Shown here one piece after another: positions 5,946-57,753 of a DNA stretch of 64,000 nt. Numbering within the stretch: position 1 is the first letter of the stretch; each line of letters begins with the position of its first letter. The notes below the pieces were generated by a model. The model worked only from the letters and a program-made list of their open reading frames with translations. It was not told the origin of the DNA and searched no databases. A program made the position numbers and the translations under genes. This DNA is from a candidate division WOR-3 bacterium (GTDB lineage: Bacteria; Hydrothermota; Tepidihabitantia; Tepidihabitantales; Tepidihabitantaceae), in NCBI GenBank assembly GCA_965649295.1, contig CBFGKH010000001.1:224001-288000 (forward strand), read 5' to 3'.

Positions 5946-6264
5946 GGTCTTGGGCAGCGCCACCTGGCGGCCCGGCCGAGGCCCAATCAGCAGCAGCCCA
6001 AGAGACAGCTACAAAGACACCTGGCCAGTCACCGTACTAAACTCACCATATGATACTCACGCGAACGCAACCCAAAGCCCGTTGCCAAACAAACGGGCCA
6101 GCATCATGCCAGGGAGCTATCACCAGAGCGACGGAAAGCTCTAGAGAGGCATCTATTAGAACATGCTCTCCAGCTGAGCCCGAGATAGTCTCGGGAACGA
6201 CTCCCGGAACGGTAGGGTGGTAGGGGCAACAATTCATCATATCCCATTAGCATCTGCGAACTTA
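5946..6264. repeat. Degenerate 12-bp-periodic intergenic array A with terminal 25-bp motif
   Basis: 22 consecutive 12-mers (5946-6209). By hand count 19 end in purine-purine, 15 start with C and none start with A; motif tatcccattagcatctgcgaactta at 6240-6264. Confidence 0.75.
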
Positions 6265-6296
6265 CAGCTAGTTATGACTACGCAGGTACGAAGCGT

Positions 6297-6323
6297 CGGC
6301 GGCGGGCAAGTTGCCCGCCGCCG
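6297..6323 (-). terminator. GC-rich hairpin, probable terminator of M6 protease 1
   Basis: cggcggcgggcaa-g-ttgcccgccgccg just downstream of the stop at 6347. Confidence 0.6.
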
Positions 6324-6346
6324 TGTCTAGATTATTCTGCTCTTGG

Positions 6347-9300
6347 CTATCTCTCGATCACGAGCTTCTGCGTCGCTGCCAACTGCTCACCACTCAGCTT
6401 CACCAAATAGACACCAGCCGGTAGCACACGAAGGTCCAGTGTCACCGGTCCTGTACCAAGCTGTTCCAGCCGCTGAGCAAAGACCCGCCGGCCCAGCGCA
6501 TCGTAAATCGAAAGCGTCGCCGACTGCATAAGTGGGCGAGTGGTCAGGTGCAGATGTCCAGAACTGATCGAACTAAGACCAATCGTGAATCGGAAGCCGT
6601 CACTCGCGGTTTCGCTCGCCTGCACGCCATCGCGTCGCCGGTCTGCGCCCAAGGCGCGACTGAGCGAGAACTGCCAGACATCATTTGAGTTGTTACCCTT
6701 GATGGCCACTAACACATCACCGGCGGTCGCCGCGATATCGCCACCCGACTTCACCTTGACCTTACTACGAACGACCCCAATCTGAGGCAACGTTTCAAGC
6801 TCAACCCACTGATCGACATCGGGTAGGTATTGCCAGAACTCAGTTGTGTTGCTGCCCTTCAGAGCATAGATGCGACCGCTGTACCAGGCCGCATTCGAAC
6901 CGTCACCGGCCTTACTGTTGCGACGGGTATAGCTGCTATAGAGCGGCATCCCCTGCCGCGGTACTGTGTCCCAAGTCTGCGTCAGAACATCGAACCGGTA
7001 GAAGTCACGATACTTACCCTTGTGGGCATAGATAAAACGGTTCTCATCATAAACGAGCCACGAACCCTTGTCCCATTTGGGCCGCGTGCCAGCCGGTGGC
7101 GCTGGCAGCGTCTCCCACTCACTACGAGCGACACTGTACCGCCAGAACTCGTTGGTGCCGCCCTTCAGCGCATAGACAGCGAACCCATCCGGCCCTGGCG
7201 CATAGACCAAATCGGTCCCGGCCTTGACCCGCTTTGGCCCTGGTATCGGGTCCAGCCGCTGCCAAGTATCGGTAAGCATCGAATACCGCCAGAAACCATC
7301 GGTGTTGTTACCTTTCAAAGCATAGACGTACTCAACGTTGTCCGCTGTTCCGGCCGCACCGGCGCTGACTGGTTTGCCTTCAATTCCTCGCGGCATCGTC
7401 TCGCACTCTGTCCAGCGACCAGACTGTGGCTCAAAGAAGTAGAAGTCCTGAGTCTTGTTCCCTTTGGCCGCATAGACTCGCCCCAGCCCCGGCGCCGACG
7501 CCAACCAGCCACCGGCCTTGACTGCTCGGTTGGAGGGCGCTGACGGCATTGACCGGGCCGGACTCCAGCCTGGCCCAGCCGGACCAACAGCGACAACTTG
7601 GCACTCGGTGAACCGGACGTCGTTCAATGGCTGACGGTCACCAGCCAGCGCCACCGAACAGGTGACAACATGACCGCCAATCGCCAATGCCTGCCATGGC
7701 CGGAAGCTTACCGTGGCCCAGGAACCGGCTCCTAGCGAAACATGCTGGGTATCAGCATAAATACTGTCAATGGTCAGAATCACCGGGATTACTGCCGCAC
7801 TAGTACCGGCATTGGCAATCACTGCCTGAGGTATCACTGTTACGCCTGAATCATAAGCGCCGGTCGGTTCGCCCAGGGCCGCTACTGCCGCGTCAACCGT
7901 GCGCACGAAAACCGAACACCCAGCCACATCATTGGTCCGCACCAGGTCACCAACCAAAGCGGTCGAACAGCGGACTGCCGAAGGCCCGAGCGGTCGCGCC
8001 CGCCAGGAAGCAAACTCAACAGTAACCTCCTCACCCGGCCCAAGTTCGACCTGCTGGGTGTTCGCATATCCCGGCCCAATCCGCATTGTCACCGGAATAG
8101 TTGTCGTATAGCTGCCCCGATTGGCAACCCGAGCTGACGGTGTCACATATAAGTCTGCCTCGACCGTGTCAATCGGAGCAATCACCAGGCTGACCGCCGC
8201 ATCAGTCACCCGCACCACGCACTGCTTGAACCGCACGTCGTTTGCCGGCTGCCAGTCACCGGCCAGCGCCGCGCTGCAGCGCACCATCACCGTACCCCGG
8301 CCGCCTGGCAGCCAAGGATCGAAATTGACCGCGGTCTGAGCATTCGCTCCGATTGTCACTGTCTGTGTGTCGGCATAGACTCCGCCAATGGTCAGTATCA
8401 CCGGAAAGGTCTGCTGGCTCGTGCTGTTGTTCCGAACGACTGCCTGCGGCGTGACCGCAACTCCTGAGTCACAGCTCGCACCCGGCTGGACAATACTGAC
8501 TACTGCCGCATCCACGGTGCGTACCGTCACCTGCCGTTCGCGCACGTTGTTCGTATCGCACAGGTCACCGGCCAAACCCACCGAGCAACGGGCAACGTGC
8601 GTCCCGCGCTGAATCGCATACCAGTCGGCAAAAGTCACCTGGGCCTGGTCTCCTGACCCAAGCGTGATGCTCCGCGTATCAGTGTAGAACGACCCGATGC
8701 GCAGCGTCACCGGGATTGTCGCCGCCCCAGTACCGCCATTACGCACCGTGGCCCGCGGCGAGACTGTAACCCCAGAATCGTAAACACCGTTCGGCTGGTC
8801 AAGCGCGACCAGCACCGCATCAGTCACCCTAACCGTCACCGTACCGCTGAGCGAATCATTGGTATTGTCTTCGTCGCCAGCCAAGGCAGTGGTGCAGCGC
8901 ACAAGATGCTGACCGCGCTGCTGCACTGACCACGGCTCAAAACTGACCTGCATCGCTGCCGCCGGATTGAGTGCTACATTCTGGGTGTCAGCATAGAATC
9001 CGCCAATCCGCAGAATAACCGGGAAGGAGGCCGGGTTGGTTCCGCTATTGCGCACCGTGACCTTGGGCACAACCATCACCCCAGAGTCGAGTATTCCGAC
9101 TGGTTCATCAATCGAGACTACTGCTGCGTCATTAGCGTCAACCCGAACCGTGACGGCAGCACTGGCAGTGTCGTTGTCACTACGCTCATCACCGGCAAGA
9201 TTGACCGTGCAACGGGCAACGTGAGAACCGACATCTTCAGCCAGCCAAGGAGTGAAACTGACAATCCGCTCCTCAGCCGGGGCCAGTGAGGTGCTGACGG

Positions 9301-12300
9301 TGCTGGAGTAGCTGGCAACCGTGAACGTCGCGGTGATGTTGCCTGACTGCGTGCCATTGTTGCGAATCCGTACCTTTGGGACAACCGTTGTATTGGAATC
9401 AACGTTGCCTACGGGCTCGACAATCGCCACCACCGCGGCATCGGTCAACCGCACGCCAGTCATGACCGTGGCCGTATCGTTCGCCCGGTTCATGTCATTG
9501 GCCAGGCTGGCAACGCACTGGGCAGTGTGGATTCCGCGCTGCTCTGCCGACCACGGAACAAATGAGACCTGTGTCTGAGCTTCAGCACCAAGAAGGACGA
9601 GCTGGGTGTTGGTGTAGAACGAACCAATGGTCATCGTGACATTGAAGGCCTTCGGCTCGGTACTGTTGTTACGAACTGTCGCCCGGGGTGTAACAACTGT
9701 GCCCGAATCGTAGATGCCGACCGGCTCATCTATCGCCACGACTGCCGCATCAATCACCCTCACATTGACCGTCGCCCCAATGGCATCATTGCTTGAATAA
9801 AGCTCTCCTGGTACCGCCGTTGAACAACGCACTGACAGTGCCCCTCGCTCGGTCGCCGTCCACGGACTGAAACTGACTGACGCCTGCGCACCCGGGCCTA
9901 AGTCCACCGAACGGTTATCAGCATAGCTACCAATGGTCATTGTGACCGGCACGGTCAGTGGCACTGTTCCCCGATTGCCAACCGTCGCCTTCGGCACAAT
10001 CACGGTTCCTGAGTCAACCGTGCCTGTTGGCTGCTCTACCAGTACGGCAAAGGCATCCGCTACTCGTACATCAACCATACTGGAGAGGGTGTCATTAGCC
10101 GGATAGTTGTCGTCCGCGAGCTTCGTTGTGCAGAGGACGACCTGCGAGCCCCTCGCTCCAGCAGTCCAGTTGGGCAGAACGACGTTCGTGAGCGTCCCGG
10201 CTGGGTGATTCATGACCAGGGTTGATTCGCGGTAACTGGCACCGATTGTCATCCTGACATAATAGGTCTTGGCCGTGGCCGAATAGTTGAACACCGTTGC
10301 CTGGGGCACGTAGGTCTGGCCCGAATCAGCCGTGCCGACTGGTGCATCAATGGACAAAACACCGACGTCATTCAGCGGCGGTCGGAACTCCACCGCCCGT
10401 TGACTCGCGAGCAGGTTACCGATTGGAGCGCCGTTGAACAGATATTGCAACCCAATCGTGCCGTTCTCATTTTCGATACCTACCGTTGCACTCCTGCCCC
10501 AGTTGCGAAGCGTGTCAGAGACCGAACAGTCCTTGTACTGGGCGACGATACGACCATTTTCACAGATGATGAGCTGAAACGTGACTTGATTGAGAGTCGG
10601 TGCACCGACAATGCGCGCGTTCTGCCAGGTCACCACCGTCGAACAGTTCGGACTGGTGCCGAAGTGCTCGCAGTAAAGGTAGCCAGAATCAGTCGGCACC
10701 AGATTGAGGTCATCCCAGAAAGCGTAGATTGCCGCATTAGGAGTAGCTCCACTTGGCAAGCTGACGTTGGCCGGTGCGTTTGTGCCAGGGTCGGCGCCAA
10801 AGCTAACCCAGCCATTGGTCGAAACCCACATCGAGCTGTAGGTCTGTCCATAGAAGCGGAAAGCGTAAGGCAGGGTGACCTGAAAACGGGCCTCGTTTCC
10901 GCTACCGAGTGGCAACGACGGTGCTGCCACACTGCGCCACGCATAAGCCGGACCGCCATCATCCGAATCAAGCCAGGTATAGCCGGCTGCGTCGGGCCCA
11001 CCAGCAAAAAGACCGGTCACGCCGGATGAAGCCCGAAATGTCATCGAAGCACCGGAAGCCGGTATGTTCTGCACGAAACTGCCGGTGGGCAAGGGACTAG
11101 CCAGCGGATAGTTTGTCCTCGTGTTCGGATTGGTCCCATCGTCAAAAGTAGTCCGGTTCAGTCCACCTGGCCACGGATCGTTACCATCGCCACGGTTGTT
11201 GCCGTTGTACAGGTGATCAAGACCGTCTGCCTGTTCGAGCGCAACACCATACTTCCAGCCCGCACCGCCGTTGTTGATTGCATTGCTGCCACGGCGCCGA
11301 ACGATAACCGAGTCGTCGATGTGGTAAATCAGCAGACCCTGGCCAGGCAAGTTGATGTCAAACCCGGTCCTGCGCCGGTTTTCAATCAGGAAGTATTCGG
11401 TAAATGTACGGTTGCTGCCGATTGTCCAGATGGCATCGGCATTGTACTCAACCTGATTCAAAGTGTAATTCCCGTCGCATCGCACCGCTCTCGGGCTGAG
11501 CCAGCCCAGTTCCATCTTACACCAGGCATCAAGGTGTGCCGGATACCACGGGGAGTTGCCATTACCGCCCCAGGAACCACCAGCCATCAGGCTCCAGTTG
11601 CCCAAACCCTGCCCGCCACCATCGGTATCGTAGAGATCAGGCAGGCCCAACGCGTGCCCCCACTCGTGACAGAAAACGCCGATGCAAACCATCGAACCGT
11701 AATTGCTGTAGTTACTCCGCTCGGGATCGATTGTATAGTCATCAATCTTTATGAACCCACCATTGCGCGGATCAGGGTCATTGGTCACATAGACACCAAT
11801 CCCTGCCGAAGAGAAGCTCCATGCATGCGAGTGAATGTCGGCACCACTGCCGGTCTCCTCGCGCCCATAACCGGCGTGGATGCAGGTAAAAGCATCAACA
11901 TAGCCGTCGCCGTCGTCGTCATAGAGGGAGTAGTCCAGCACCGCGTCTGCTGCTGCGGCCGCCTCTTTGGCCAGCATTGCCGCCCGCTGGAATCCATTCG
12001 AGTAGCCATAGTAGGCCCTGTTGTTTATGGCCGTGTACCAGCCTGCCACTGTTCCGGTCAGGTTGAACTGCCCATATGAGACCTGACTGTAGTAGTCACG
12101 AGCAGAGCCTGTAGGCCATGTGCCAAAGAGCATGTTCTGAAACTCAGCCACCGAGTAGTTGTTGGGATAATCTGGATAATTGATAGCTACAACCGGAAAC
12201 TGTCTTGTCCCAACGACCAGTGGTAGGACATCGCCAGGCCGGTTTCTGATTTCACGCATTCCCAGACTGCGCACCGGGCGCGTGAACTGGTTGAGACCGT

Positions 12301-12427
12301 TGCTAATCGCATCGAGTTCGTGCGGCAGGGGCTTAACTGAGTTATCAATTGGCGGCATAGCCTGCACCGACAGAACGAAGGGAACGGTTAGCAGCAGGAC
12401 AGCTAGCAAAGCACGCATCAGTTTCAT
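6347..12427 (-). CDS. Secreted M6 (immune inhibitor A-like) metalloprotease with 9 CARDB-like Ig repeats, Kelch-like propeller and T9SS-type C-terminal sorting domain
   Basis: Signal peptide; IGVFCHEWGHALGLPDLYD, WSLMAGGSW, EYFLIENR; repeated D-A-A-V-V-x-I-x-x-P...VRCST-x-L-x-GD...ND units; KGNNT repeats; C-terminus GVYLVKL...TQKLVIER. Confidence 0.9.
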   Translation of the reverse strand: MKLMRALLAVLLLTVPFVLSVQAMPPIDNSVKPLPHELDAISNGLNQFTRPVRSLGMREIRNRPGDVLPLVVGTRQFPVVAINYPDYPNNYSVAEFQNMLFGTWPTGSARDYYSQVSYGQFNLTGTVAGWYTAINNRAYYGYSNGFQRAAMLAKEAAAAADAVLDYSLYDDDGDGYVDAFTCIHAGYGREETGSGADIHSHAWSFSSAGIGVYVTNDPDPRNGGFIKIDDYTIDPERSNYSNYGSMVCIGVFCHEWGHALGLPDLYDTDGGGQGLGNWSLMAGGSWGGNGNSPWYPAHLDAWCKMELGWLSPRAVRCDGNYTLNQVEYNADAIWTIGSNRTFTEYFLIENRRRTGFDINLPGQGLLIYHIDDSVIVRRRGSNAINNGGAGWKYGVALEQADGLDHLYNGNNRGDGNDPWPGGLNRTTFDDGTNPNTRTNYPLASPLPTGSFVQNIPASGASMTFRASSGVTGLFAGGPDAAGYTWLDSDDGGPAYAWRSVAAPSLPLGSGNEARFQVTLPYAFRFYGQTYSSMWVSTNGWVSFGADPGTNAPANVSLPSGATPNAAIYAFWDDLNLVPTDSGYLYCEHFGTSPNCSTVVTWQNARIVGAPTLNQVTFQLIICENGRIVAQYKDCSVSDTLRNWGRSATVGIENENGTIGLQYLFNGAPIGNLLASQRAVEFRPPLNDVGVLSIDAPVGTADSGQTYVPQATVFNYSATAKTYYVRMTIGASYRESTLVMNHPAGTLTNVVLPNWTAGARGSQVVLCTTKLADDNYPANDTLSSMVDVRVADAFAVLVEQPTGTVDSGTVIVPKATVGNRGTVPLTVPVTMTIGSYADNRSVDLGPGAQASVSFSPWTATERGALSVRCSTAVPGELYSSNDAIGATVNVRVIDAAVVAIDEPVGIYDSGTVVTPRATVRNNSTEPKAFNVTMTIGSFYTNTQLVLLGAEAQTQVSFVPWSAEQRGIHTAQCVASLANDMNRANDTATVMTGVRLTDAAVVAIVEPVGNVDSNTTVVPKVRIRNNGTQSGNITATFTVASYSSTVSTSLAPAEERIVSFTPWLAEDVGSHVARCTVNLAGDERSDNDTASAAVTVRVDANDAAVVSIDEPVGILDSGVMVVPKVTVRNSGTNPASFPVILRIGGFYADTQNVALNPAAAMQVSFEPWSVQQRGQHLVRCTTALAGDEDNTNDSLSGTVTVRVTDAVLVALDQPNGVYDSGVTVSPRATVRNGGTGAATIPVTLRIGSFYTDTRSITLGSGDQAQVTFADWYAIQRGTHVARCSVGLAGDLCDTNNVRERQVTVRTVDAAVVSIVQPGASCDSGVAVTPQAVVRNNSTSQQTFPVILTIGGVYADTQTVTIGANAQTAVNFDPWLPGGRGTVMVRCSAALAGDWQPANDVRFKQCVVRVTDAAVSLVIAPIDTVEADLYVTPSARVANRGSYTTTIPVTMRIGPGYANTQQVELGPGEEVTVEFASWRARPLGPSAVRCSTALVGDLVRTNDVAGCSVFVRTVDAAVAALGEPTGAYDSGVTVIPQAVIANAGTSAAVIPVILTIDSIYADTQHVSLGAGSWATVSFRPWQALAIGGHVVTCSVALAGDRQPLNDVRFTECQVVAVGPAGPGWSPARSMPSAPSNRAVKAGGWLASAPGLGRVYAAKGNKTQDFYFFEPQSGRWTECETMPRGIEGKPVSAGAAGTADNVEYVYALKGNNTDGFWRYSMLTDTWQRLDPIPGPKRVKAGTDLVYAPGPDGFAVYALKGGTNEFWRYSVARSEWETLPAPPAGTRPKWDKGSWLVYDENRFIYAHKGKYRDFYRFDVLTQTWDTVPRQGMPLYSSYTRRNSKAGDGSNAAWYSGRIYALKGSNTTEFWQYLPDVDQWVELETLPQIGVVRSKVKVKSGGDIAATAGDVLVAIKGNNSNDVWQFSLSRALGADRRRDGVQASETASDGFRFTIGLSSISSGHLHLTTRPLMQSATLSIYDALGRRVFAQRLEQLGTGPVTLDLRVLPAGVYLVKLSGEQLAATQKLVIER

Positions 12428-12526: not shown

Positions 12527-12566
12527 CAAGCAACAGAAGCGGCCTGCAGGCCGCTTCTGTTGCTTG
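12527..12566. terminator. Perfect 40-bp palindrome, probable terminator of M6 protease 2
   Basis: caagcaacagaagcggcctg|caggccgcttctgttgcttg, 17 bp after the stop at 12584. Confidence 0.65.
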
Positions 12567-12583
12567 TGGCTGTGGGCGGTGGG

Positions 12584-15500
12584 TTACTGCTCTACCACCA
12601 GCTTGGTCTTTTCACTACTACCGCCACCCTCAAGACTCAGGATGTAAACTCCCGCTGCCAGCCCGTGCAGGTCAAGCTGACACCAGTCGCGGCCTGCCCG
12701 AACCGACTGCGAAACAAGACACCGACCAGCGACATCCCGGACCGATAGCCACCGATTACTGGTTGTCGGCGAAAATCGAATGACCAACGTACCGGTTGAC
12801 AACGGATTAGGAACGGCAGCAAGCCGTACCCGCGCATCAATCGTCCTGTCGCTAGCCATGACCCCGCTCTGGCTGTGACTAATCGCGTTCTGCCAGGAGA
12901 TTCCGCCTGGTACGTATGTCCAGAACTGTCGAGAACGATTGCCCTTCAGCGCGTAGCAGACGCCCGTCTCGGGATAGTAAGCCAGGGCAGCGCCAGCCTT
13001 GACCCGCTTACGCGCACTGCTGCCCGGGTAGGCTTTCGGAATTGACTCCAATTCAATCCACGTATCATCTGCGGGTAGATACTGCCAGAACTCCTGAGTG
13101 CTGTTCCCCTTGAGAGCATAGATAACATTACCATCAAAGGCAGCACAACCGCCATCACCCGCTTTCTTGTTTCGCCGCCCAGTCACACCGCTGACCAGTG
13201 GCATCCGGGAGAGAACTACCGCGGTATCCCAACGTTCCTCGCTGACGTCGTAACGGTGCAATTCGTTGTACCTCGCCTTCAGAGCATAGATGTAGCGACA
13301 GCCATCGTAAACCAGCCATGAGCCGCGCCCATACCTTGGCCGGTCGCCGACTGGTGCCGGCGCTAACTCCACGAACGTATCGGTTCCGACATCGTAACGC
13401 CAGAAAGCATTATCGCCACCCTTGAGCAGATAGACATGGTCACTATTCGGTTTCGCAACATAAACCATGCCTGCGCCCGACCGCACCTTCTTGCGATTCG
13501 GGCCTTCGGGAATACTAGTCAGAGCACCCCATGTCTGGGTCGCGACATCGAACCGATAGAACTCGGTCGTGTTGTTGCCCTTGGCCAGATAGACACAGCC
13601 TGCGCCGCAGCAAATCGCACTGCCCCGGTAAACTCCGCGATCACGGTCACCACCGGGCACACTCGGTTCCTGCGTCCAGCCAGAATCGCCAGGCCGATAG
13701 GACCAGTATTCCAGAGTCCGGCTACCCTTCAACGCATAGAACTTGCCGCTAATCGGTTCGAACGTCAGCGCACCGCCATCCCGCACATACGTCGTGCCAG
13801 GCAGTGATTCAGCCGGATGCCAGCCCGGTGCCAGATTGCCCAGGCCAACAACAAACTGTCGCTCTAATGAGTTGTTCTCAGGACACTGTTCGGTCGCTAG
13901 CACCACCATACCGCGTGCAGTGTAGCGGCCTCGTCCTGCATTCCAAGGAGCAAACTGCAGCACCGTATCAGCCTCGACCGGCAGACCTGAATCGAGCACT
14001 AGACTATCGGTGTAACGGGTCGGCCCAGCAATGTCGAGTAGCACCCTGACCGGCTCGCGCACGGTACCACAGTTGCGCAGACGCAACATTGGCACCACTA
14101 CACCGGGCGGAACCGAATCACTCGGTGCCATTAGCTCTACTACTGCCGCATCGTGGACCGCGACTGTCACACTCGTGCTGGCAGTGTCGTTTGCCGGCAC
14201 CGCATCGCCCTCAAAGTCCAGCGAGCAGCGAACGGTCTGCCGACCGCGGCCGGTGGCCGCCCAGGGCCGGAACAGCACCTCGGCCTGGTCACCAGCCGCA
14301 AGCTCAATCGTGTATTCGTCACGGTAGTCGCTGCCGATGCTGAGGACCAGGGCAAACACTGCCTCTTCGGTGCCAGGATTGTAGATTGAGACTGCCGGCA
14401 CAACCTGAGCGCCCGAGTCAATCGTGCCGTGCGGCCTACCCAGACCAGAAACCCCGACGTCGAGAACCCGAACCACCGCTGCCGTGGTCAGCGTGTCATC
14501 AGCCCGCACCATGTCAAAGGCAAGCCCGGTTGAACAGCGCACGGTATGCTCTCCTCGCACCATATTGTCCCACGGCGCAAAAGTTGCCTCGGCTTCCTCA
14601 CCCGGTTGCAGCACAACATACTGCGTATCACAGTAGCCAGAACTGACACTGAGCGCCACCGGCACTACTGCCGGCTCGGTTCCGCGGTTAACAACGACCG
14701 CATGGGGAATCACCAGCGTGCCCGAATCATACACCCCACTTGGCGCGTCAATCGAAAGCACCCCAGCGTTCCAAACCCGGACTCGGGTACTACTCACCAG
14801 CGTGTCGTTACTCCGATTAAGGTCACCGCTCAGCACTGTCCAGCAGCGCACGTCCTGTACTCCCCGCTGCATCGCCATCCAGTTACCAAAGGTCACCTCA
14901 TTCTGGGCTCCGGCGGGAACGGTGACAGTGCGAGTGTTGGTGTAACTGCTGCCAATTCGCATCGTGACCGCAAACGTCGCCGCAGCCATACCATAGTTTG
15001 CAACCATGGCCCGCGGCGTAACAACAGTGCCCGAATCAACCGCCCCGGTCGGCGCCAGAACGCTAACAACACCAGCATCGGTGACGTTAACCGTGACACT
15101 ACCAGTGACCAGATTGTTGCTCGCCACCTGGTCGCCAGCCAAAGCCGTCGAACAACGCACCGCCAGATTGCCGCGCTGCTGCGCGGTCCAAGGCGAAAAT
15201 GTCACCACCGACTGACCGCCAGCCGGCACCGTGATACTCTGCGTGTTGCTGTATAGACTGCCGATGCGCATCGTCACCGGAATCGAAAGACTCTGATTGC
15301 CGCGATTGGCAACAGTCGCCTGAGGTGTAATCACTGCCCCAGAATCAACCGTCCCGGTCGGAGCCGCAATAGTCAATGCCGCGGCATCAGTCACCCGCAC
15401 AAACACATTGCCACTAATGGTGTCATTGCTGCGCTGCTGATCACCACTCAAGTAGGTCGAGCAGCGCACCACCAGATTACCTCGCGGCAGTGCCGTCCAG

Positions 15501-18043
15501 TTGTTGAACGAGACGCTGACCTGCATGCCCGGTTGGACGGTTACATTCCGGGTGTTGCTGTAGGCGGTACCAATCCGCAGACGCACCGGAACAGTCACTG
15601 CCGCCGTTCCATAGTTGGCCACCAGCGCCTGCGGCGTAATCACTGCCCCCGAATCAACTGTCCCGGTCGGAGCAGTTATCGTCACGGCCGCAGCATCCAC
15701 AACTCGCACCGTGACAACGCTACTCATCGTGTCGTTGGCCGAGTTGGCGTCGTTGGCAAGCCCGGTTGAACAGCGGACAGTCAGGTTGCCTCGCGGTAGC
15801 GCTGTCCAGGCTGCAAAGGCGACACTGGTCTGAGCACCGGCCGCCAGTGAGACTGTCTGGGTGTTGACGTAGAGGCTGCCGATTCTCAAGGTAACCGGAA
15901 AGGTGACGGCAGCCGTTCCGTTGTTGACCACTGTTGCCTGCGGAGTGATGACCGTGCCGGAATCAACCGTCCCGCTCGGCGCGCTGATGGCAACCACCGC
16001 CGCATCACTGCCACCAACAACAACCGTGCTGCTCACAGTATCATTGGCACGCACCAAATCACCAGCCAGTCCAGTCGAACACCGCACCGTCAGCGTACCC
16101 CGTGGCGACGCGGTCCAGTTAGCAAAAGTTACGCTAGTCTGCGCACCGGCGGCAAGCGCGACACTCTGGGTGTTCGTGTAAGCAGTACCAATCTTCAAGG
16201 TAACCGGTATCGTTGCACTCACACTGCCGCAATTCTGGACTGTCGCGCGGGGCGTGATGACCGCTCCGGAATCAACAGCGCCGATTGGAGCGGTAATGGC
16301 GACTACTGCCGCATCAGTCACTCGAACTGTTAGCGAACGCGTCTTGCAGTCGTTAGCAGTATTGGCATCGCCGGCAACCAGTGTTGAGCACTTGGCGGTG
16401 TAGGAGCCACGCGGAACTGCCACCGTCCAGTTCGCGAAAGTCACGAGGGTTGATTCTCCAACCCCAAGACCCGCCACTGTCCGGGTGTCAGTGTAGTATG
16501 AGCCGACCCAAAACCGGACCGAGAAACTACCAATAGCAGTCGTGCCGTAGTTCTTCACCCAAGCAGCAGGTGTCTGCACCGATCCGCTGTCAATCGTCGT
16601 CGCCGGGGCGGTGATTGCCGCCACCCCAACATCACCACTCGGTGGCGGTGCTGAGCCGCCTGACTTGAGCGAGCAGACCGCATAGTAGCTCTTAGGCGGA
16701 ATCATCCAGGCCTTACAACCAGAAAGACCATTCGCCGGCGAGTTCAGCCGAGCGCGGGACGTGCTTGAGCTGTCCGAGAAAACAGTCCAGTTGCCAAACC
16801 CCGGCCAGACGTCATCACCGTCGCCCCGGTTGGTGCCGTCCTGCAGGTCAATTGCACCGTCAGCCTCTTCAACGCAGACACCGTAGGGCATGATTCCGCC
16901 GGCGTTAATCATGTTGAGTGACTCGCGCGCCCGGATCACTGCGTTGTCAATGTGCTGAATCAGCAGCCCGCCTCCCTGTACACCCGGCAGCATCAGGTCA
17001 TAACCAAGATAGCAGCGGTTGGTAATCAACCAGTATTCGCTCGTGTCGGCCGCGGTCACCAGCTTGTAGATACGGCCATTACTGTAGGTGGCAGCCGGAA
17101 TAGTACAGAGCGTCGCGACATTTGGCACCACGATCGGCGTGCGCCAGCCGAGCCGCTCATAGCACCAGGCATCAGGACAGGTTGGCCGCCAAGGCGAGGC
17201 GTTGTTGCCACCCCACGAACCGGTCGCCATCAGACTCCAATTGCCGATCCCTGAACCACCGCCATCGGTGTCATACAGGTCCGGCAGCCCCAACGCATGT
17301 CCCCACTCATGGCAGAACACGCCGATACTGACCATCGTTCCGGTCTGAGTGATGTTACTGCGCTCCGGGCACATGACATAGCCATCAATCTTGATGTACT
17401 GGCCTGGGTGTCCTGGCCTGGGGTCATTAGTGGTGTACACCCCAACACCAGCTTCGGACAGGCTCCAAAGATGCGACCAGATATCATCGTAGTCGCCAGT
17501 CTCCTCAAGTCCGTAGCCGGCGTGTATTACTGTGAAGATATCTACGAAACCATCGCTGTCGGCATCAAAGGCAGCAAAGTTCAATAGGGAATCAACCTTC
17601 TGAGCCGCCTCCTTGGCCAGCAGTGCCGCTCGCTGTATCCCACTGCCGTAACCATAATAGGCACGATTGTTGTTTGCGGTTACCCACCCGACAACTGTCC
17701 CATCAATGTCGAATTGCCCGAAGCTGACCGTCTGGAAGTAATGCCGAGCCGAAGGGTTCGGCCACTCAATCACATTGAACAATCGCTGCTGAAAGGCGCC
17801 AGTCGTGTAGGTCTCGGCAAAGTTTGGGTACTTGATGCAGGCAACCGGGAAATACCTGGTACCAGTGACGGCAGTTGCCTCACCCAGCCCGCGGATGGGC
17901 CGCAGTGCACGATTGAGACCCTGTTTTAGCGCGGAACGATAATCAGCCGTTATCAACGGCTTGTCGAGCTTGTGGTAAGGAGGCATCGAAACCGCGATGC
18001 CAGCAAAGAGCAAAACAGCGGTCAGTAGCTTTCGGGTTGTCAC
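12584..18043 (-). CDS. Second secreted M6 metalloprotease with 9 CARDB-like repeats, Kelch-like propeller and T9SS-type C-terminal domain
   Basis: Signal peptide; IGVFCHEWGHALGLPDLYD; same repeat architecture as its neighbour; C-terminus GVYILSL...KTKLVVEQ; GGAGG RBS before GTG. Confidence 0.9.
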   Translation of the reverse strand: MTTRKLLTAVLLFAGIAVSMPPYHKLDKPLITADYRSALKQGLNRALRPIRGLGEATAVTGTRYFPVACIKYPNFAETYTTGAFQQRLFNVIEWPNPSARHYFQTVSFGQFDIDGTVVGWVTANNNRAYYGYGSGIQRAALLAKEAAQKVDSLLNFAAFDADSDGFVDIFTVIHAGYGLEETGDYDDIWSHLWSLSEAGVGVYTTNDPRPGHPGQYIKIDGYVMCPERSNITQTGTMVSIGVFCHEWGHALGLPDLYDTDGGGSGIGNWSLMATGSWGGNNASPWRPTCPDAWCYERLGWRTPIVVPNVATLCTIPAATYSNGRIYKLVTAADTSEYWLITNRCYLGYDLMLPGVQGGGLLIQHIDNAVIRARESLNMINAGGIMPYGVCVEEADGAIDLQDGTNRGDGDDVWPGFGNWTVFSDSSSTSRARLNSPANGLSGCKAWMIPPKSYYAVCSLKSGGSAPPPSGDVGVAAITAPATTIDSGSVQTPAAWVKNYGTTAIGSFSVRFWVGSYYTDTRTVAGLGVGESTLVTFANWTVAVPRGSYTAKCSTLVAGDANTANDCKTRSLTVRVTDAAVVAITAPIGAVDSGAVITPRATVQNCGSVSATIPVTLKIGTAYTNTQSVALAAGAQTSVTFANWTASPRGTLTVRCSTGLAGDLVRANDTVSSTVVVGGSDAAVVAISAPSGTVDSGTVITPQATVVNNGTAAVTFPVTLRIGSLYVNTQTVSLAAGAQTSVAFAAWTALPRGNLTVRCSTGLANDANSANDTMSSVVTVRVVDAAAVTITAPTGTVDSGAVITPQALVANYGTAAVTVPVRLRIGTAYSNTRNVTVQPGMQVSVSFNNWTALPRGNLVVRCSTYLSGDQQRSNDTISGNVFVRVTDAAALTIAAPTGTVDSGAVITPQATVANRGNQSLSIPVTMRIGSLYSNTQSITVPAGGQSVVTFSPWTAQQRGNLAVRCSTALAGDQVASNNLVTGSVTVNVTDAGVVSVLAPTGAVDSGTVVTPRAMVANYGMAAATFAVTMRIGSSYTNTRTVTVPAGAQNEVTFGNWMAMQRGVQDVRCWTVLSGDLNRSNDTLVSSTRVRVWNAGVLSIDAPSGVYDSGTLVIPHAVVVNRGTEPAVVPVALSVSSGYCDTQYVVLQPGEEAEATFAPWDNMVRGEHTVRCSTGLAFDMVRADDTLTTAAVVRVLDVGVSGLGRPHGTIDSGAQVVPAVSIYNPGTEEAVFALVLSIGSDYRDEYTIELAAGDQAEVLFRPWAATGRGRQTVRCSLDFEGDAVPANDTASTSVTVAVHDAAVVELMAPSDSVPPGVVVPMLRLRNCGTVREPVRVLLDIAGPTRYTDSLVLDSGLPVEADTVLQFAPWNAGRGRYTARGMVVLATEQCPENNSLERQFVVGLGNLAPGWHPAESLPGTTYVRDGGALTFEPISGKFYALKGSRTLEYWSYRPGDSGWTQEPSVPGGDRDRGVYRGSAICCGAGCVYLAKGNNTTEFYRFDVATQTWGALTSIPEGPNRKKVRSGAGMVYVAKPNSDHVYLLKGGDNAFWRYDVGTDTFVELAPAPVGDRPRYGRGSWLVYDGCRYIYALKARYNELHRYDVSEERWDTAVVLSRMPLVSGVTGRRNKKAGDGGCAAFDGNVIYALKGNSTQEFWQYLPADDTWIELESIPKAYPGSSARKRVKAGAALAYYPETGVCYALKGNRSRQFWTYVPGGISWQNAISHSQSGVMASDRTIDARVRLAAVPNPLSTGTLVIRFSPTTSNRWLSVRDVAGRCLVSQSVRAGRDWCQLDLHGLAAGVYILSLEGGGSSEKTKLVVEQ

Positions 18044-18264
18044 AATCGCTCCTCCACAGTAAATGACGCATCCACACCCGATGCTCTGGCCGCTCGTCCC
18101 GGAGCGTCATTACATTCTACCCCTCCTGTCAATGACTGTCAATCAAACTCAACCGGTAGCTTCCAGTCACCGCGACAACCCTGATGCCGAACGCAGTTCG
18201 CGCTAGCGGAACCGACCGCCTGCACCCTTTTTCGGGTGCAACGCACGCTGGCGAACATCAGACC

Positions 18265-18606
18265 TAACTCTTCTTCTCCCAATCTGATGCCCGAGCCCTG
18301 CTCTTCTCCCCTCCCTCGTCCCCCGGACTACTACCAGCAGCCTTCTGCCATCTCTCCTCATCAATACTGGCTTGGGTACCTACGAAGAAATCCCAAGCTT
18401 CGTTGCAACAGCCCTTTTCCAGAACGCCTTGCAGTGAGTCCTACGACTAGCCACTAGAATCGCCTTAGGCGAGGCTACCCACTAGCTCGGCTACCAGACC
18501 TGCGACCCTCCTTGCTACGACCTCTGCCAGTATCCATGCTGACAGACCTGCAGGTCTACTTGAGCCCCAATCCGCTTCGACCTAATTCCCACCCCTGTCA
18601 CTGCTC
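18265..18606. repeat. Degenerate 12-bp-periodic intergenic array B (opposite orientation)
   Basis: Motif taactcttcttctcccaatctgatg at 18265-18289; 24 12-mers from 18319 (tcccccggacta...), of which 22 start with pyrimidine-pyrimidine. Confidence 0.75.
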
Positions 18607-20929: not shown

Positions 20930-22903
20930 CTATGGTGCCAGCCCCACCTGTAGCAACAACCCGACGGTTGCCGCCACCAGTGAGACAACAGTGATAATTA
21001 ACCCGGTACGAAACCAGGCGCCAAAGCTGATTGACTGGCCGGTAACTCGCTCATACATTCCCACCGCGACGAGGTTGGCGCTGGAACCCACCATCGTCAG
21101 GTTGCCACCGAAACAGCCACCAAACAACAGCGCCCACCACAAAACTGACGCGTGGGGTAACTTCACTGCCTGCAACGACTTCACGACCGGTACAAGCGCA
21201 GCAACGATTGGCATGTTATCAACAAAACCCGACCCAACACCAGCACCCCAGAGCATCAACACCAGCGCTGAGCCGGTTACGCCGGCGCTGCCAAGCAGGT
21301 GATTAACCGGCGACCGTTCGGCTGCCTGCAGCAACAGGTAGCCAATCTTGGTCGTCACGCCGGTGTGCTCGAGACAGGCCGCGCAGGCAAACAGGAACAT
21401 AAAGAACAAGAGCGTCCACCAGTCAATACTCCGGGCGATGAGCTGCCGGCCGCGCTCCTGCTCGACAAAAATCACAAAAGCAACCGCGGCCAGCGGCGCT
21501 GCCATCAGCATCGTCCCTTCACCCAATCGTAGCAACGTTTCAAGTCGCGCGTGAAACATAATCGCCGCCACGACCGCAAGAAACGTGATACCTCCCAAAC
21601 GCAGCTCATCGGTATCGAAGCCACTTGCCATCCGCTCAAACTCACGATTGTCCACAACCTGCCGCGTCGCCAGTTGGCGACGAAACAGTAGTACTATCAG
21701 TCCACCGATGGCCAGCGCCGAGACAAAGGAGATTGGCGTTGCCCAACGTAGGAAATCCTCAAAGGTGAGCTGGGCAATGAACGCGAGATACACGCCAATG
21801 GGATTACCGACAAGCGTCAATGCGCTGCCGATATTGGTAGCAAAGACCAGCGCTAAGAGGTAGGGTAACACCGGTGTCTTGGTGCGGCGAGCAATCTCCA
21901 CTGCCAGCCCAAATGTCACCAGGATGCCCGAGACCTCGCCGACAAAACCACTGAGCAACACCGAAAAACCCATCAGGATTAGCAGCAAGACCCACGGCAC
22001 GCCGCCGACCCGACGGACGACCTGAATGACAATGAACTTGAACAGCCCCTTGTCCTCTACCCACTTGATTAGCACCATCATTGCCATCACGAAGATGATC
22101 GTCGGCAGCGACATGTACTCAACCATCTGCGGCAGGTCAATAACTCCCGCCAGCAATAGCAGGCTGAGTCCCACTCCCACAACCGCCAACCGAAACTTCC
22201 AGAAAAGTAGGGTGCCAACAATCATGGCAGCGAAAATCGCTACCACCAGTGCCTGCCGGGACAGCCACGGCTCAAAGTTGAACCGCAGCAGACCAAGCTC
22301 CTCATAGACGCTCCCCGCCGACAACACTACTCGCGGCAGCAGCAGCTTGGCGCCCACCCAAACCCCAACTACTACCAGCGCTGTCAGCAGAATGCCTCGA
22401 CTCCGCCAAAGCCAGTTTGGGGTCGGCGAACGTCGCAGCAGTTGCACAATCTGCTGAGCTGAACTGGCCCGCAACAACCGGCCCTTCAGATACTCGTTCC
22501 CGAGCAGGCGGGCAACCGCCGCTAATGTCTGCAGGTAGCGTGACCGCGCTGCTGCGTCGGCAACAATAACCGCGACCAGTCGTACCGGTTCTCCATCAAC
22601 AGCGTGCCAGTCTATACCGCTGCGAATCCGGACCAAAACAACTGCCGGCTCAGTCCCGGTTGCCGGAATCAAAGCGTGCGGCAACGCGACACCAGCGCCG
22701 ACCCCAGTCGAACCCTGCGCCTCACGCTGCAACAAGGCCTGCACCAAGCCGGCCTTATCGGTGACCAGGCCGGCGGCCGCCAGTCGCTCGGCCGCAACGC
22801 GAAAGACCTCTTCTGGTCCGCTAGCCTCGGCCAGGTCAACAACCAAGTCTATCCCCAAGTTGAGACCTGGTTCGTGTCGGCCAGTATGAATTGGGTCAGT
22901 CAA
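20930..22903 (-). CDS. PTS EIIA domain fused to ArsB/NhaD/CitMHS-type (IT superfamily) permease
   Basis: REAQGSTGVGAGVALPHA; permease motifs ATNIGSALTLVGNPIG, IDWWTLLFF, SGFVDNMP, GGNLTMVGSSANLV. Confidence 0.85.
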   Translation of the reverse strand: MTDPIHTGRHEPGLNLGIDLVVDLAEASGPEEVFRVAAERLAAAGLVTDKAGLVQALLQREAQGSTGVGAGVALPHALIPATGTEPAVVLVRIRSGIDWHAVDGEPVRLVAVIVADAAARSRYLQTLAAVARLLGNEYLKGRLLRASSAQQIVQLLRRSPTPNWLWRSRGILLTALVVVGVWVGAKLLLPRVVLSAGSVYEELGLLRFNFEPWLSRQALVVAIFAAMIVGTLLFWKFRLAVVGVGLSLLLLAGVIDLPQMVEYMSLPTIIFVMAMMVLIKWVEDKGLFKFIVIQVVRRVGGVPWVLLLILMGFSVLLSGFVGEVSGILVTFGLAVEIARRTKTPVLPYLLALVFATNIGSALTLVGNPIGVYLAFIAQLTFEDFLRWATPISFVSALAIGGLIVLLFRRQLATRQVVDNREFERMASGFDTDELRLGGITFLAVVAAIMFHARLETLLRLGEGTMLMAAPLAAVAFVIFVEQERGRQLIARSIDWWTLLFFMFLFACAACLEHTGVTTKIGYLLLQAAERSPVNHLLGSAGVTGSALVLMLWGAGVGSGFVDNMPIVAALVPVVKSLQAVKLPHASVLWWALLFGGCFGGNLTMVGSSANLVAVGMYERVTGQSISFGAWFRTGLIITVVSLVAATVGLLLQVGLAP

Positions 22904-42770: not shown

Positions 42771-43328
42771 GTGAAGACGAATCTTGTTGCGCTGTTGTGT
42801 GGTCTTGGTGCCCTGGGTCTGCTTGGCAGTAACGCTGCTCGTGTCCAACCCTATCGCTGTGACTGGAGCGTGAACGGGATTGGAGGCGGAGAGATGAGTT
42901 CGACCGCGTACAAGTGCGGCTCCAGCGCTGGCCAGACCGCAGTTGGGCTGGCGACAACATCGGGTCTGCAGGTGTTTGCCGGGTTCTGGCTGCCCGACTA
43001 CGGCGTCGGTATCCAGGAACCGAGTGACACCAGAGTCGGCAACGTGGCTCTGGTCACGCGGCTGGAACGGGCCGCGCCGAATCCGGCCCGACGAATCGTT
43101 ACGATTCGCTACACCCTTGCTCTTGACCAGAAGGTGTCACTCGCAGTTTGTGACCTGACCGGTCGGGTGGTGCGCGAGCTTCTCGGGTCGAGCGTCAATC
43201 GAGGCGAGCACACCGTTGTCTGGGACGGCTGTGATGGCAGTGGCCATCTGCTGCCGGCCGGCGTCTATCTCCTGCGGTTCGCTGCCGGCGACTACAGGAC
43301 AACGCAGAAGCTCATTCTGCAGCGGTAA
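42771..43328 (+). CDS. Small secreted protein with FlgD-Ig/T9SS-type C-terminal domain
   Basis: Signal peptide; GGG-x-MSS-x-x-Y...SAGQ...AGFW; PNPARR...VWDGCDGSG..LPAGVYLLRF...TQKLILQR. Confidence 0.8.
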   Translation: MKTNLVALLCGLGALGLLGSNAARVQPYRCDWSVNGIGGGEMSSTAYKCGSSAGQTAVGLATTSGLQVFAGFWLPDYGVGIQEPSDTRVGNVALVTRLERAAPNPARRIVTIRYTLALDQKVSLAVCDLTGRVVRELLGSSVNRGEHTVVWDGCDGSGHLLPAGVYLLRFAAGDYRTTQKLILQR

Positions 43329-43500
43329 CCGGACGCAGTTCTCAGGATTCTCGGCGGGGCGCAATGCCCAGCCGAGCCGCTGTTTGCCCCACAGCCATCA
43401 TCAAGTTATACGCACGAGTGAACGGCCATGAGCACAAGAAGTTCTGACCGCCAGCTTGCACCCTTTTCAAGGTGCAGAACTAATAGTGGCCGACAGGTCC

Positions 43501-43842
43501 TAAATCATTACTTTGCAATCGCATAGCCAGCTCCTCGTAAGCTACCCTCCCCCATCCCCGGGACTACCCCCAACAGTCTCTCCTGAACTCCTGCCCCTGC
43601 TCTCCTCCGAACCCGTTGCCAGCGAGCCATCGTCAGTGTGACCGTAGCTACTTTCAAGCCGGTTACCAAATCAGCTATCGGCAGAGTTCTGAACTGAGCT
43701 ACCAATATTGCTCTTGCTTGGACTCCGGACGCCCCTACCGGTTGTCTCGGCGGATGAGCCAGCAACGGTGCTGACAGGCCACCTTGCCGCCGCATCTGCT
43801 AAAACCCCCTGCTTGCTCCCTTTACGGTTGCTTCATGTTTGG
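43501..43842. repeat. Degenerate 12-bp-periodic intergenic array C
   Basis: Motif taaatcattactttgcaatcgcata at 43501-43525; 24 12-mers from 43555 (tccccgggacta...), of which 22 start with pyrimidine-pyrimidine. Confidence 0.75.
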
Positions 43843-51251: not shown

Positions 51252-51266
51252 ACTTCACCTCTGCCT

Positions 51267-53484: not shown

Positions 53485-53538
53485 CGCTGTTCTATACCGG
53501 TAGTTTGACCGTTTGGGCGCCATTGACTACAATAGGCC

Positions 53539-55979: not shown

Positions 55980-56008
55980 AGCTTCTCCTTGTGACCTAGA
56001 CAGAGATT

Positions 56009-57349
56009 CTAGGACTCGGCCGCGCCAGCGTCAACGCGGTCAGGACCCTGGCTACAGCCGTTGGTTGCCAGTTCTGGCTGAGCTGGCAGTTCATTCGGCT
56101 GACCGAAATACTCAGTAGCCAGCTCACCGGCCCGGGCTAGTCTGTCACCATACTCCGGGTCAAGAAAAACCATGAACTTCCACAACCGCTCCTGCCGCTT
56201 CTTCAGATTCTCAATCTCCTCGTTGTTTTCCAACCGACGCGGCGGCTCTCCGGCCCGCAGCCGGAACAGAGCATTCGCCTCCCGTAACTGCATTGACGAT
56301 GACGGGCAGTAAAGAATCACCGACCGAAATGGTACCCGCAGCTTGCGACAGAGCCAACGCTCTGCCTCAGCCCGCGCGGCTGGGTCAAGATGATACCGGG
56401 TAAAACGCTCTGTCGAAGAGATGCTGCGGCGAGAGACAAGATAAGCCTTCTTATAGAGTCGCCGACCCCAGAATCTTTCCACTAGATAACGGGCAGGCGC
56501 TGGCCCAGAGCCGATAATCCGCAGAAAACCCTCGTCGCCGACGTCATAGAACGACCGCTCGGATAAGCGCATCTTACCGCCCAGACAGAGTTCTAGCGCC
56601 TTCGAGACCATTGCTGAGGCTGCATTCTTGGCCGGATGGTAATAGACCCGCTCGCTCAAGACATACCGCATCCGCAGGACATTCAGAGTCTCAGACAGCC
56701 CGTCCATCCGAAACAGTCCTCCCCGCACGAGATTGATACACAATGCGCCGTCAGCAATCACGAAATACTTGAACAACCGCTCGTCATACTGCTGGGATAG
56801 GCCGGTGAAATATGAGTCCCGTTCCAGATAGTCCAAAAGGTCAGCACAGATAGTGCTTGATACAATATCGTAGTGGTAGGTCGGCCCATCCTTGTACAGC
56901 CGCTTAGTTGCTAGCAGCCGTTCAATATCCGACCGCACTCCCAACTTGGCCAGAACCTTGCCAGTGTCGGTGCGACTGAGAAAGTAATCAATCCGGCCGA
57001 CATTCTGGTCATGCCGCACAAATACCCGCCGCTCGTCCTCAATAGTATGGCCAAAAGGGATATGGGTGATGTCGTGGACAAGAGCATAGAGACAGATTAG
57101 CCGTTCATCCTCAGCCGAAATCGCCCCCTCACCGCAGTTGCGGCGAATGTGACCAATCATCTTCTTCGCAATCCCGCAGGTGCCCAGACTGTGCTCAAAA
57201 CGGGTGTGCACCGCACTAGGATAGACCAAGTAGGACGCACCAAGCTGCTTTATCCCGCGCAGACGCTGAAAAGTGCCAGTATCAATCACTGCCAGCTCAT
57301 CAGCCGTAAACTCAATGTCTCCATGCACCGCGTCGCGAAACGTCTTCAT
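56009..57349 (-). CDS. HD-domain phosphohydrolase (SAMHD1/dNTP triphosphohydrolase-like)
   Basis: FRDAVHGDI, FQRLRGIKQLG, HTRFEHSLG, VHDITHIPFGH, ADLLDYLERD, RVYYHP. Confidence 0.85.
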   Translation of the reverse strand: MKTFRDAVHGDIEFTADELAVIDTGTFQRLRGIKQLGASYLVYPSAVHTRFEHSLGTCGIAKKMIGHIRRNCGEGAISAEDERLICLYALVHDITHIPFGHTIEDERRVFVRHDQNVGRIDYFLSRTDTGKVLAKLGVRSDIERLLATKRLYKDGPTYHYDIVSSTICADLLDYLERDSYFTGLSQQYDERLFKYFVIADGALCINLVRGGLFRMDGLSETLNVLRMRYVLSERVYYHPAKNAASAMVSKALELCLGGKMRLSERSFYDVGDEGFLRIIGSGPAPARYLVERFWGRRLYKKAYLVSRRSISSTERFTRYHLDPAARAEAERWLCRKLRVPFRSVILYCPSSSMQLREANALFRLRAGEPPRRLENNEEIENLKKRQERLWKFMVFLDPEYGDRLARAGELATEYFGQPNELPAQPELATNGCSQGPDRVDAGAAES

Positions 57350-57400
57350 CAAAGCCAATCCTAGACCTCGCTTCTTGCTGGTCAAGAACTACAGAAGAAC

Positions 57401-57753
57401 CACTGCTGCCAAGTCTGTCAGTAATCTCTCCACGGACCCACTATCAGACAGCGGCCAAAACTCCTAAGCAGAGAGAGTGGGAACATCACCCACCAGTGAG
57501 CTGCCAATGCAACCCATAGGCGTTCTCAGAATCAGGTCCGGATGTTCGTCTGCCGATGCCCTGCAAGACCAACCTTCCGACACCTCCAGAAAAGACACCC
57601 AGAAGCCACTGCCAAAACCAGTCCCAAACCACGATACCGGCCCACATGCAAACACTTTGCCAATCAGTTCAGGGAACGACTCCCGGGATGGCCCACTGTA
57701 GGACCTGCCCAGTAACGGCCCTGGCCACTAACCCATTGATTCACAAGCAGTTG
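57401..57753. repeat. Degenerate 12-bp-periodic intergenic array D
   Basis: 24 12-mers (57401-57688), of which 19 end purine-purine and 13 start with C; last units cagttcagggaa cgactcccggga; motif taacccattgattcacaagcagttg at 57729-57753. Confidence 0.75.

Follow-up and report, generated by a model that had tools for sequence, protein, structure and literature searches.

Dispersed intergenic elements carrying 12-nucleotide-phased arrays in a candidate division WOR-3 bacterium

Four phased arrays in the window

The stretch of DNA analysed here, the window, covers 64,000 nt (C1:224001-288000) of the 2.28-Mb genome of a candidate division WOR-3 bacterium, assembled in 19 contigs. Between its genes lie four regions, R1 to R4, that an earlier note, made from the letters alone, had described as gapless runs of 12-mers that vary in sequence but hold a fixed register, with units starting in two pyrimidines (YY). 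This register is visible by eye when the regions are written unit by unit. The four are copies of one family of self-contained, non-coding, polar intergenic elements, each consisting of a head followed by an array. R1 and R4 lie on the minus strand and R2 and R3 on the plus strand, at the following window positions.

5932..6323, minus strand: R1, whole element (head and array); blind-scan region 5879-6232, profile score 41, anchor at 6207
6297..6323, minus strand: R1 hairpin with a 12-bp GC stem, stem at -116 (hairpin search, sequence)
6186..6209, minus strand: R1 anchor units TTCCGGGAGTCG and TTCCCGAGACTA
5932..6232, minus strand: R1 array, 25 twelve-base units, 19 of 25 starting YY
18221..18597, plus strand: R2, whole element (blind scan, profile, anchor)
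18221..18240, plus strand: R2 head hairpin TGCACCC-TTTTTC-GGGTGCA (subfamily A)
18319..18330, plus strand: R2 anchor unit TCCCCCGGACTA
18297..18597, plus strand: R2 array, 22 of 25 units starting YY, signal weaker in the last third
43457..43832, plus strand: R3, whole element (blind scan, profile, anchor)
43457..43476, plus strand: R3 head hairpin TGCACCCT-TTTC-AAGGTGCA (subfamily A)
43555..43566, plus strand: R3 anchor unit TCCCCGGGACTA
43532..43832, plus strand: R3 array, 22 of 25 units starting YY
57412..57779, minus strand: R4, whole element (blind scan, profile, anchor)
57759..57779, minus strand: R4 head hairpin GAACGC-N9-GCGTTC
57677..57688, minus strand: R4 anchor unit TCCCGGGAGTCG
57412..57712, minus strand: R4 array, 19 of 25 units starting YY

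Fourier analysis, with 500 dinucleotide-preserving shuffles of each region as the null, bore out the 12-bp phasing. The top period of the Y and YY indicators was 12.0 nt in all four regions, and power at this period was equalled by no more than one of 500 shuffles in each (p <= 0.002); over the whole spectrum, p for YY was 0.000, 0.066, 0.002 and 0.000 for R1 to R4. The units starting YY in the best register (19, 22, 22 and 19 of 25) have the same numerators as the earlier hand counts; shuffles averaged 10.8 and did not exceed 16. A common anchor unit is likewise present in all four regions. Array length required correction from the 22-24 units first counted to 25, spanning -25 to +275 relative to the anchor.

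A genome-wide family with a conserved head

A blind scan of the genome returned 640 windows with 12-nt power above 2.0, compared with 2-18 each for periods of 9, 10, 10.5, 11, 13, 14 and 15 nt. These merge into 72 regions that include all four regions described above. Fifty-seven are strong and clearly oriented; the 15 weak ones lie mostly inside ordinary open reading frames (ORFs) and were excluded as members. The anchor CC[CG]GG[GA] stands at the start of the run in 52 of the 57 strong copies, and a sequence model of the anchor region has 65 matches in the genome. In total the family numbers about 67 copies, the 57 strong ones plus 10 weaker head matches.

When the 52 anchored copies are stacked without gaps on the anchor, the pyrimidine signal runs from -25 to +275 (25 units) and then ends. 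With copies in their best register, the marked pair is about 90% pyrimidine overall and 75-100% at both positions in each of the 25 units. The gradual distal fading of similarity proposed earlier is therefore absent: head and anchor are conserved, and the pyrimidine pair then continues without gradient. The unit profile reads YYy-ss-G-rrr-..-G, of which units share the pyrimidine pair and a weak G, the purine positions being much less conserved. Of the 35 copies with signal at both ends, 31 have the same phase in their first and last 108 nt, where 8.8 would be expected.

Each copy comprises a head of about 115 nt and then at most 25 twelve-base units. Read toward the array, the parts of the head are a hairpin (fixed at -100 to -82), the motif yTAAsT, then GATAGC or GTTAGG, a C-rich box, and finally a YGTC tag with a CCCGGG palindrome. 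The two motifs stand about 17-18 nt apart and end, judged by eye, about 20 nt ahead of the array. There are two main hairpin types, TGCACCC...GGGTGCA and TGTGTACT...AGTACACA, and a clear hairpin is found in only 36 of 52 copies. In the tag, the T of GTC is at least 90% conserved and TGTC is commoner than CGTC; the palindrome measures 6-15 bp. Head models and motifs match nowhere in the genome but in the elements. No conserved 3' tail was detected in this genome, tails giving 6 spurious pairwise matches versus 516 for heads. The 25-bp end motif that had been noted beyond the terminal unit is present in all four window copies. Across the genome 12 of the 52 anchored copies have it, 10 at -57 to -55 from the anchor, as against 0 of 1040 shuffled heads; it is the marker of one head subfamily.

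Even spacing along the chromosome

The even spacing of the copies is a new finding of this analysis. The 52 within-contig gaps between the 57 strong copies and 10 head matches range from 11.3 to 50.4 kb, with a median of 29.7 kb. As a null, the same numbers of copies per contig were drawn 5000 times from 754 permissible gene boundaries. The coefficient of variation (CV) of the gaps was 0.38, against a null mean of 0.87 and minimum of 0.59; with the 57 strong copies alone it was 0.47. No gap is shorter than 10 kb, where the null gave a mean of 14.0 and never fewer than 5, and the largest is 50.4 kb versus a null median of 105 kb. Adjacent copies tend to alternate, 35 of the 52 pairs being oppositely oriented (one-sided p = 0.009). 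Such spacing argues for a role at the level of the chromosome, for example as domain or loading sites.

Two links to replication were rejected. The split of element orientation against GC skew (32 to 20) is not significant, and GC skew in the window shows no flip at the elements, which argues that they are not replication origins.

Neighbouring genes, coding potential and transcription

The earlier note had the arrays pointing to gene promoters and, in tandem-gene gaps, the end motif facing the 3' end of the previous gene. This polarity fails genome-wide. The 52 copies fall into neighbour-orientation classes of 16, 13, 11 and 9, and three have no upstream gene. Downstream genes run with the element in 31 cases and against it in 21, upstream genes with it in 24 and against it in 25; 11 copies lie between convergent genes. 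Element orientation is independent of the neighbouring genes. These data bear on the possibility that the elements are cis-regulatory leaders, terminators or Rho attenuators of adjacent genes. Three window copies do point at a co-oriented gene, a canonical promoter stands just after the array in 13 of 52 copies, and a promoter-like site occurs at +250 to +410 in 50%. Lying after the array, these promoters place it outside any 5' untranslated region, however; such sites are enriched there, serving the downstream genes, and also on the far side of heads, serving divergent genes. Together with the mixed orientations and the copies between convergent genes, this makes a cis-regulatory role very improbable. 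No gene for a binding protein or partition ATPase was found beside the arrays, whose neighbours are diverse housekeeping genes.

Because 12 nt equals four codons and regular arrays of relatives lie in long open frames (an array of genome G004 overlaps one of 585 aa), the arrays could be taken for decayed protein-coding tetrapeptide-repeat genes. Yet the frames over relatives' arrays match no Pfam family, and in all six frames of the 52 copies stops occur at the chance rate (2.54-3.40 per 300 nt versus 2.90 expected). A protein-coding repeat gene through the array is thereby ruled out, in keeping with the non-coding character first claimed, and descent from such genes has next to no probability.

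The elements might instead be genes for a non-coding RNA, the head motifs forming an alternative-sigma promoter for an unstructured transcript of about 300 nt carrying the pyrimidine marks. Such a transcript would bind many single-strand-binding proteins, for instance four Rho hexamers or an OB-fold protein, and act as a sponge, a scaffold or a self-terminating transcript. In favour of this reading, the code belongs to a single strand, and hairpin and loops alike differ between the strands; the two head motifs have a promoter-like separation and end point, as judged by eye. Arrays are no more structured than shuffles (mean z of -0.2 for the Y strand and -0.6 for the other strand in 26 copies; -0.51 for R3), rho is present in the genome, and the 12-nt spacing falls within the 11-13 nt that defines Rho utilization (rut) sites in the excerpted text of PMC6407284. 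Against this, the tRNA genes of the organism have clear TTGACn-N17-TAnAAT promoters, but no canonical promoter serves the element in either direction: a score of at least 12 was reached by 8% of windows upstream of the element and by 17% of those in the head, versus 12.6% at random and 41% upstream of genes. Neither a terminator nor a conserved tail was found, the median C/G ratio is 0.89 and exceeds 1 in only 19 of 52 copies, and C occupies only 37-38% of marked positions. Even spacing would have no obvious reason and, were the hairpin part of the RNA, the two motifs that follow it could not serve as promoter. Known RNA families gave little: there were 0 Rfam matches in the window at the gathering score, chance-level matches only for R3 at E <= 10, and a single match (E 0.13) for 19 element loci at E <= 1. 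RNAalifold predicted 0 pairs on the anchor, and the window holds no tRNA or tmRNA gene. On balance we regard RNA genes as unlikely but as the main rival to the explanation favoured below, keeping some weight because all strand-specific features fit them.

About 250 nt separate the start of the genome's single rho gene (G000:C3:33943-35014) from the head of an element directed away from the gene, an adjacency at about chance level (about 7%). The idea that units act as spacers or guides targeting the organism itself was also rejected: in-register 12-mers match the rest of the genome 287 and 305 times, those of other registers 286-346 times.

Genes and repeats beside the window copies

R1 and R2 flank a pair of giant minus-strand ORFs of 2026 and 1819 aa (6347-12427 and 12584-18043) made of 309-nt (103-aa) tandem repeats. 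The R1 hairpin may also be the terminator of the 2026-aa gene, which ends at 6347, and a perfect 20+20 nt palindrome between the giant genes (12527-12566) is probably a bidirectional terminator. By eye, the C-termini of ORF 6347-12427 and of the 185-aa ORF at 42771-43328 resemble type IX secretion sorting domains; the latter gene has paralogues on contigs C2 and C6, with DNA identities of 78% and 75%. On the other side of R1, a weak 12-nt periodic stretch (5519-5716) within ORF 5280-5813 has a profile score of 7 and lacks the anchor, and was judged a non-member. Two adjacent minus-strand ORFs of 657 and 648 aa (20930-22903 and 23336-25282) share stretches of 71-72% identity, spaced about 2.4 kb apart, and are probably tandem paralogues. 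Within ORF 40377-42761, a 217-nt direct repeat (41154-41370 and 41490-41706) is 93% identical between its copies, which lie 336 nt apart.

Array evolution in this genome and in close strains

Identity between the arrays of different copies is 0.300 in register, 0.296-0.298 when shifted by 12, 24 or 36 nt, and 0.25 out of register; copies thus share a unit profile and not positional homology. Unit identity is 0.337 within a copy versus 0.294 between copies, giving each array its own flavour. In related strains diverged by 5-8%, R3 and R4 are found at the same loci. One related-strain contig spans R3 with 104 differences and 0 gaps; in another, diverged sequence of equal length takes the place of the last 78 nt of the R3 array. 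Transitions are about twice as frequent as transversions between strains. A metagenome scan for close strains yielded one 43% relative. With unit identity close to chance and the register nonetheless preserved, neutral decay is a difficult explanation.

Related elements in other genomes

Head-model matches are patchy within the family of this organism (90 in G033, 46 in G008, 43 in G012, 39 in G017 and 0 in several genera), weak in a sister family, and absent from three other families of the order; in a 150-genome sample of the phylum they are confined to this family. In 13 of 19 relatives the best head matches are followed by 12-nt arrays, often far more regular than those of this genome. Typical units of five relatives are as follows.

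G033: units TCCCCTAGCGGT / CCCGGGGACGGC, about 20 per array
G023: units CTTCGGGAGTTG / CCTCCGAGGTTG, about 19 per array
G019: units CCTACGGGGCTA / CTCCCCAGGTTG, about 21 per array
G004: unit CTTGCCAAGCTG, with 24- and 36-nt higher-order repeats, 24-27 per array
G008: TTGCGGGAGGAC-like units, about 24 per array

Across genera, unit number (17-27) and head layout are conserved, and unit sequence is genus-specific, often with a dyad-symmetric core. Between G008 and G017 the tail module is 95-98% and the head 83-90% identical, and the array between them cannot be aligned. An array of G004 likewise folds no better than shuffles (z = -0.12). Whole arrays of G033 are 87-91% identical at 10 other loci, a near-identity that indicates recent spread. 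Element positions are not conserved between genera, an array being present at only one of 11 orthologous ABC-transporter loci. Iterative addition of units from an anchored end, one of two mechanisms suggested in the earlier note, fares unevenly: the higher-order repeats of G004 attest growth by whole units in relatives, but growth from the anchored end finds no proximal-to-distal gradient in this genome. A reverse transcriptase as diversifier was also rejected, being absent in this genome and poorly correlated with arrays in relatives.

Elements of G033 (loci C40, C60, C88, C89 and C64) and of G004 (1700425-1701180) often carry two tandem arrays that differ in unit type and are separated by about 90-130 nt. 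Many arrays of relatives lie at contig ends.

Part of this record would be expected of selfish, satellite-like mobile DNA without host function, in which the period is a relic of 12-mer duplication, the pyrimidines persist through an excess of transitions and the spacing reflects target immunity. The patchy copy number among genera (0 to 90 head matches), the near-identical G033 copies, the higher-order repeats of G004, the lack of positional conservation and the twofold excess of transitions between strains all fit such an origin. Neutral decay, however, would add frame-breaking indels, and the register is held in 31 of 35 copies despite near-chance unit identity. Purine positions are far less conserved than the pyrimidine pair, heads are conserved while arrays drift, and the gaps have an upper bound (maximum 50.4 kb) in addition to a lower one. 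Nor was a transposase gene, including one of the Mu/Tn7-type DDE class, found in this genome. We consider purely selfish DNA quite unlikely.

A proposed link to REP-associated tyrosine transposases

The explanation that we favour, at a probability of roughly 40%, is that of a family resembling repetitive extragenic palindromic (REP) sequences and their REP-associated tyrosine transposases (RAYTs), immobile in this genome, whose arrays are kept as phased tracks for a putative oligomeric reader. The family would arise and spread as a REP-like element mobilised in trans as single-stranded DNA by a RAYT-like tyrosine transposase, an enzyme that would recognise the head through its tagged palindrome or its hairpin.

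Several observations in relatives point in this direction. Among 40 relatives, the transposase domain Y1_Tnp occurs in 10 of 13 with verified arrays versus 4 of 27 others, an association that these numbers overstate since kin are not independent. The best match of the relatives' Y1 proteins is the NCBIfam REP-associated tyrosine transposase, at 62-71 bits (IS200, 22 bits), which is below the NCBIfam cut-off of 80 bits. With a detector of ten YY pairs 12 nt apart, which gave a weak signal in 5 of 79 unrelated loci, arrays were found no more than about 2 kb from Y1 genes at 7 of 19 loci; four are robust, with at least 10 pattern matches, and three rest on 2-3 matches, a level reached by about 6% of unrelated loci. 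By eye, RAYT-like genes are flanked by TTATTGGGGAC / GTCCCCAATAA, and array heads near them contain GGGGGCAGTCCCCC-type palindromes resembling the anchor CCCGGGGACTGTCCCGGG of this genome; palindromes of the GGGG(N)CAGTCCCC type are common to RAYT-like gene flanks and array heads. The R1 head model gave chance-level matches only on four Y1 loci, and Tandem Repeats Finder nothing relevant on three. At one locus of G036 (L204 1323-1476), a 78-nt unit present twice at 98% identity lies directly upstream of a RAYT-like gene and contains TATTGGGGACA and a TTGACA-type promoter box.

The head hairpin also looks built for one strand. Its stems hold 18 G.T versus 5 A.C mismatches, numbers that count sequences and not events because several G.T stems are one inherited variant, and its loops contain 99 T versus 35 A in 200 letters. 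The mismatch bias and the T-rich loops fit single-strand reading of the hairpin, in the manner of RAYTs on REPs.

In this genome the copies are probably immobile, given that no RAYT-like gene was found and that the arrays lack positional homology. What is maintained is the register, the pyrimidine marks, the unit number and, here, the chromosomal spacing. Arrays kept free of register-breaking indels suggest use as a phased track, whose sites an oligomer or filament would occupy or step along 12 nt at a time, the evenly spaced elements acting at chromosome level, for example as domain or loading sites. The earlier proposal of a loading site followed by phased sites for a protein filament thus survives as the most economical reading of the array, although the reader protein was not found.

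The REP/RAYT-like explanation, with its oligomeric reader, faces a number of difficulties. A family search of this genome for Y1_Tnp/RAYT, rve and RVT_1 found none, and a relative's RAYT-like protein used as query had no match in it, where the 19-contig assembly leaves room for an unassembled copy; for this genome, mobilisation is something that we purely infer. Among relatives there are exceptions in both directions, G019 having regular arrays without Y1 and G009, G018, G013 and G020 having Y1 without a head match, and the arrangement of gene and array is not fixed between Y1 loci. The weak array matches near Y1 genes, the sub-threshold RAYT scores, the shared ancestry of the relatives and the inherited G.T stems count on the same side. 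As to the reader, no recurrent family was found among 54 ORFs beside arrays in 19 relatives, and in this genome the units show neither dyad symmetry nor any coherent pairing covariation, whether inside a unit or from one unit to another (best z 4.4, one isolated pair). For no second genome could even spacing be shown: G033 offers only six within-contig gaps (12.8-36.8 kb, by hand), and in G004 spacing is irregular, two arrays being 4.8 kb apart and others 34-115 kb, with too few arrays in a 400-kb stretch.

A bolder and doubtful version treats the roughly 70 evenly spaced, orientation-alternating tracks, marked by nothing but pyrimidines every 12 nt, as a genome-encoded ruler, domesticated from a REP/RAYT-like element. 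An oligomer loaded at the head would sit on the track or move along it in 12-nt steps, and the system would divide up or patrol the chromosome in roughly 30-kb units. Candidate readers would be a hexameric motor, an AAA+ or OB-fold filament, or a DNA-bound protein spiral. Array letters may change fast under such a scheme, only register and marks being read.

Comparison with known systems

No description of comparable arrays was found in the literature searched, and none in Rfam, in agreement with the earlier note, which knew of no named element of this form. In excerpts of PMC3337134, PMC5581495 and PMC3733652, REPs measure 20-40 bp and carry a tag of consensus CGTC (also GTAG), a REPIN is a pair of inverted REPs, and RAYTs are typically single-copy. 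As far as those excerpts describe them, the elements resemble REP/REPIN-RAYT systems in being extragenic and numerous and in their strand-specific hairpin features, and partly also in a short palindrome with a putative unpaired tag (here YGTC before CCCGGG), and in relatives the RAYT-like genes likewise co-occur with the repeats and sometimes adjoin them. Unlike the REPIN of the same excerpts, the element has one head and a 300-nt direct array of phased 12-mers in place of an inverted pair; some relatives, unlike the typical single-copy RAYT described there, have multi-copy RAYT-like genes (7 in G008, 12 in G034). A further departure is that the present genome has no RAYT. To our knowledge there is no report of even spacing of REPs, a subject for which no search as such was made.

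Rut sites, in the excerpted text of PMC6407284, are about 78 nt long, C-rich and G-poor, with cytosines every 11-13 nt and C/G above 1. Measured against that description, the arrays are partly alike in having pyrimidine marks at such a spacing (here exactly 12.0) on an unstructured strand, and unlike in being 300 nt long and mostly G>C, with marks that are C or T and an orientation unrelated to upstream genes. The C/G ratio is 0.89, 2.21, 1.77 and 0.62 for R1 to R4, and C does not exceed G over the family as it does in rut sites.

Centromere and iteron arrays of plasmids or phages offer another comparison. In the part of PMC3130281 drawn on, TP228 parH is a plasmid centromere array of degenerate tetramer boxes bound by dimers. 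The present arrays resemble what is described there in their tandem, phased and partly degenerate units and, in relatives, in dyad-symmetric unit cores. They differ from centromere and iteron arrays in having about 67 chromosomal copies versus one per replicon, no adjacent gene for a binding protein or ParA, a period of 12 bp, and, in this genome, units that have lost dyad symmetry. Plasmid R1 parC and the MetJ metboxes are further arrays of sites bound by ribbon-helix-helix or helix-turn-helix (HTH) proteins. By analogy with such systems, a cooperative filament on a fixed number of sites would be the natural reading. The pneumococcal BOX element, boxA-(boxB)n-boxC with 0-8 well-conserved copies of the 45-nt boxB, is likewise a modular repeat found dispersed, its head conserved and an internal module repeated in tandem; the present arrays differ in having about 25 units, each of 12 nt, with no more than a pyrimidine pair in common.

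Implications

On the practical side, these arrays break assemblies of related genomes. Elements whose information lies almost wholly in register and not in letters are very rare in bacteria. If the REP/RAYT-like origin that we favour is right, the repeat here carries a large and clearly constrained cargo, which would bear on the decades-old question of what REP-like repeats are for. Spacing like that of fence posts along the chromosome of this hot-spring bacterium may give a new handle on the organisation of small bacterial genomes.

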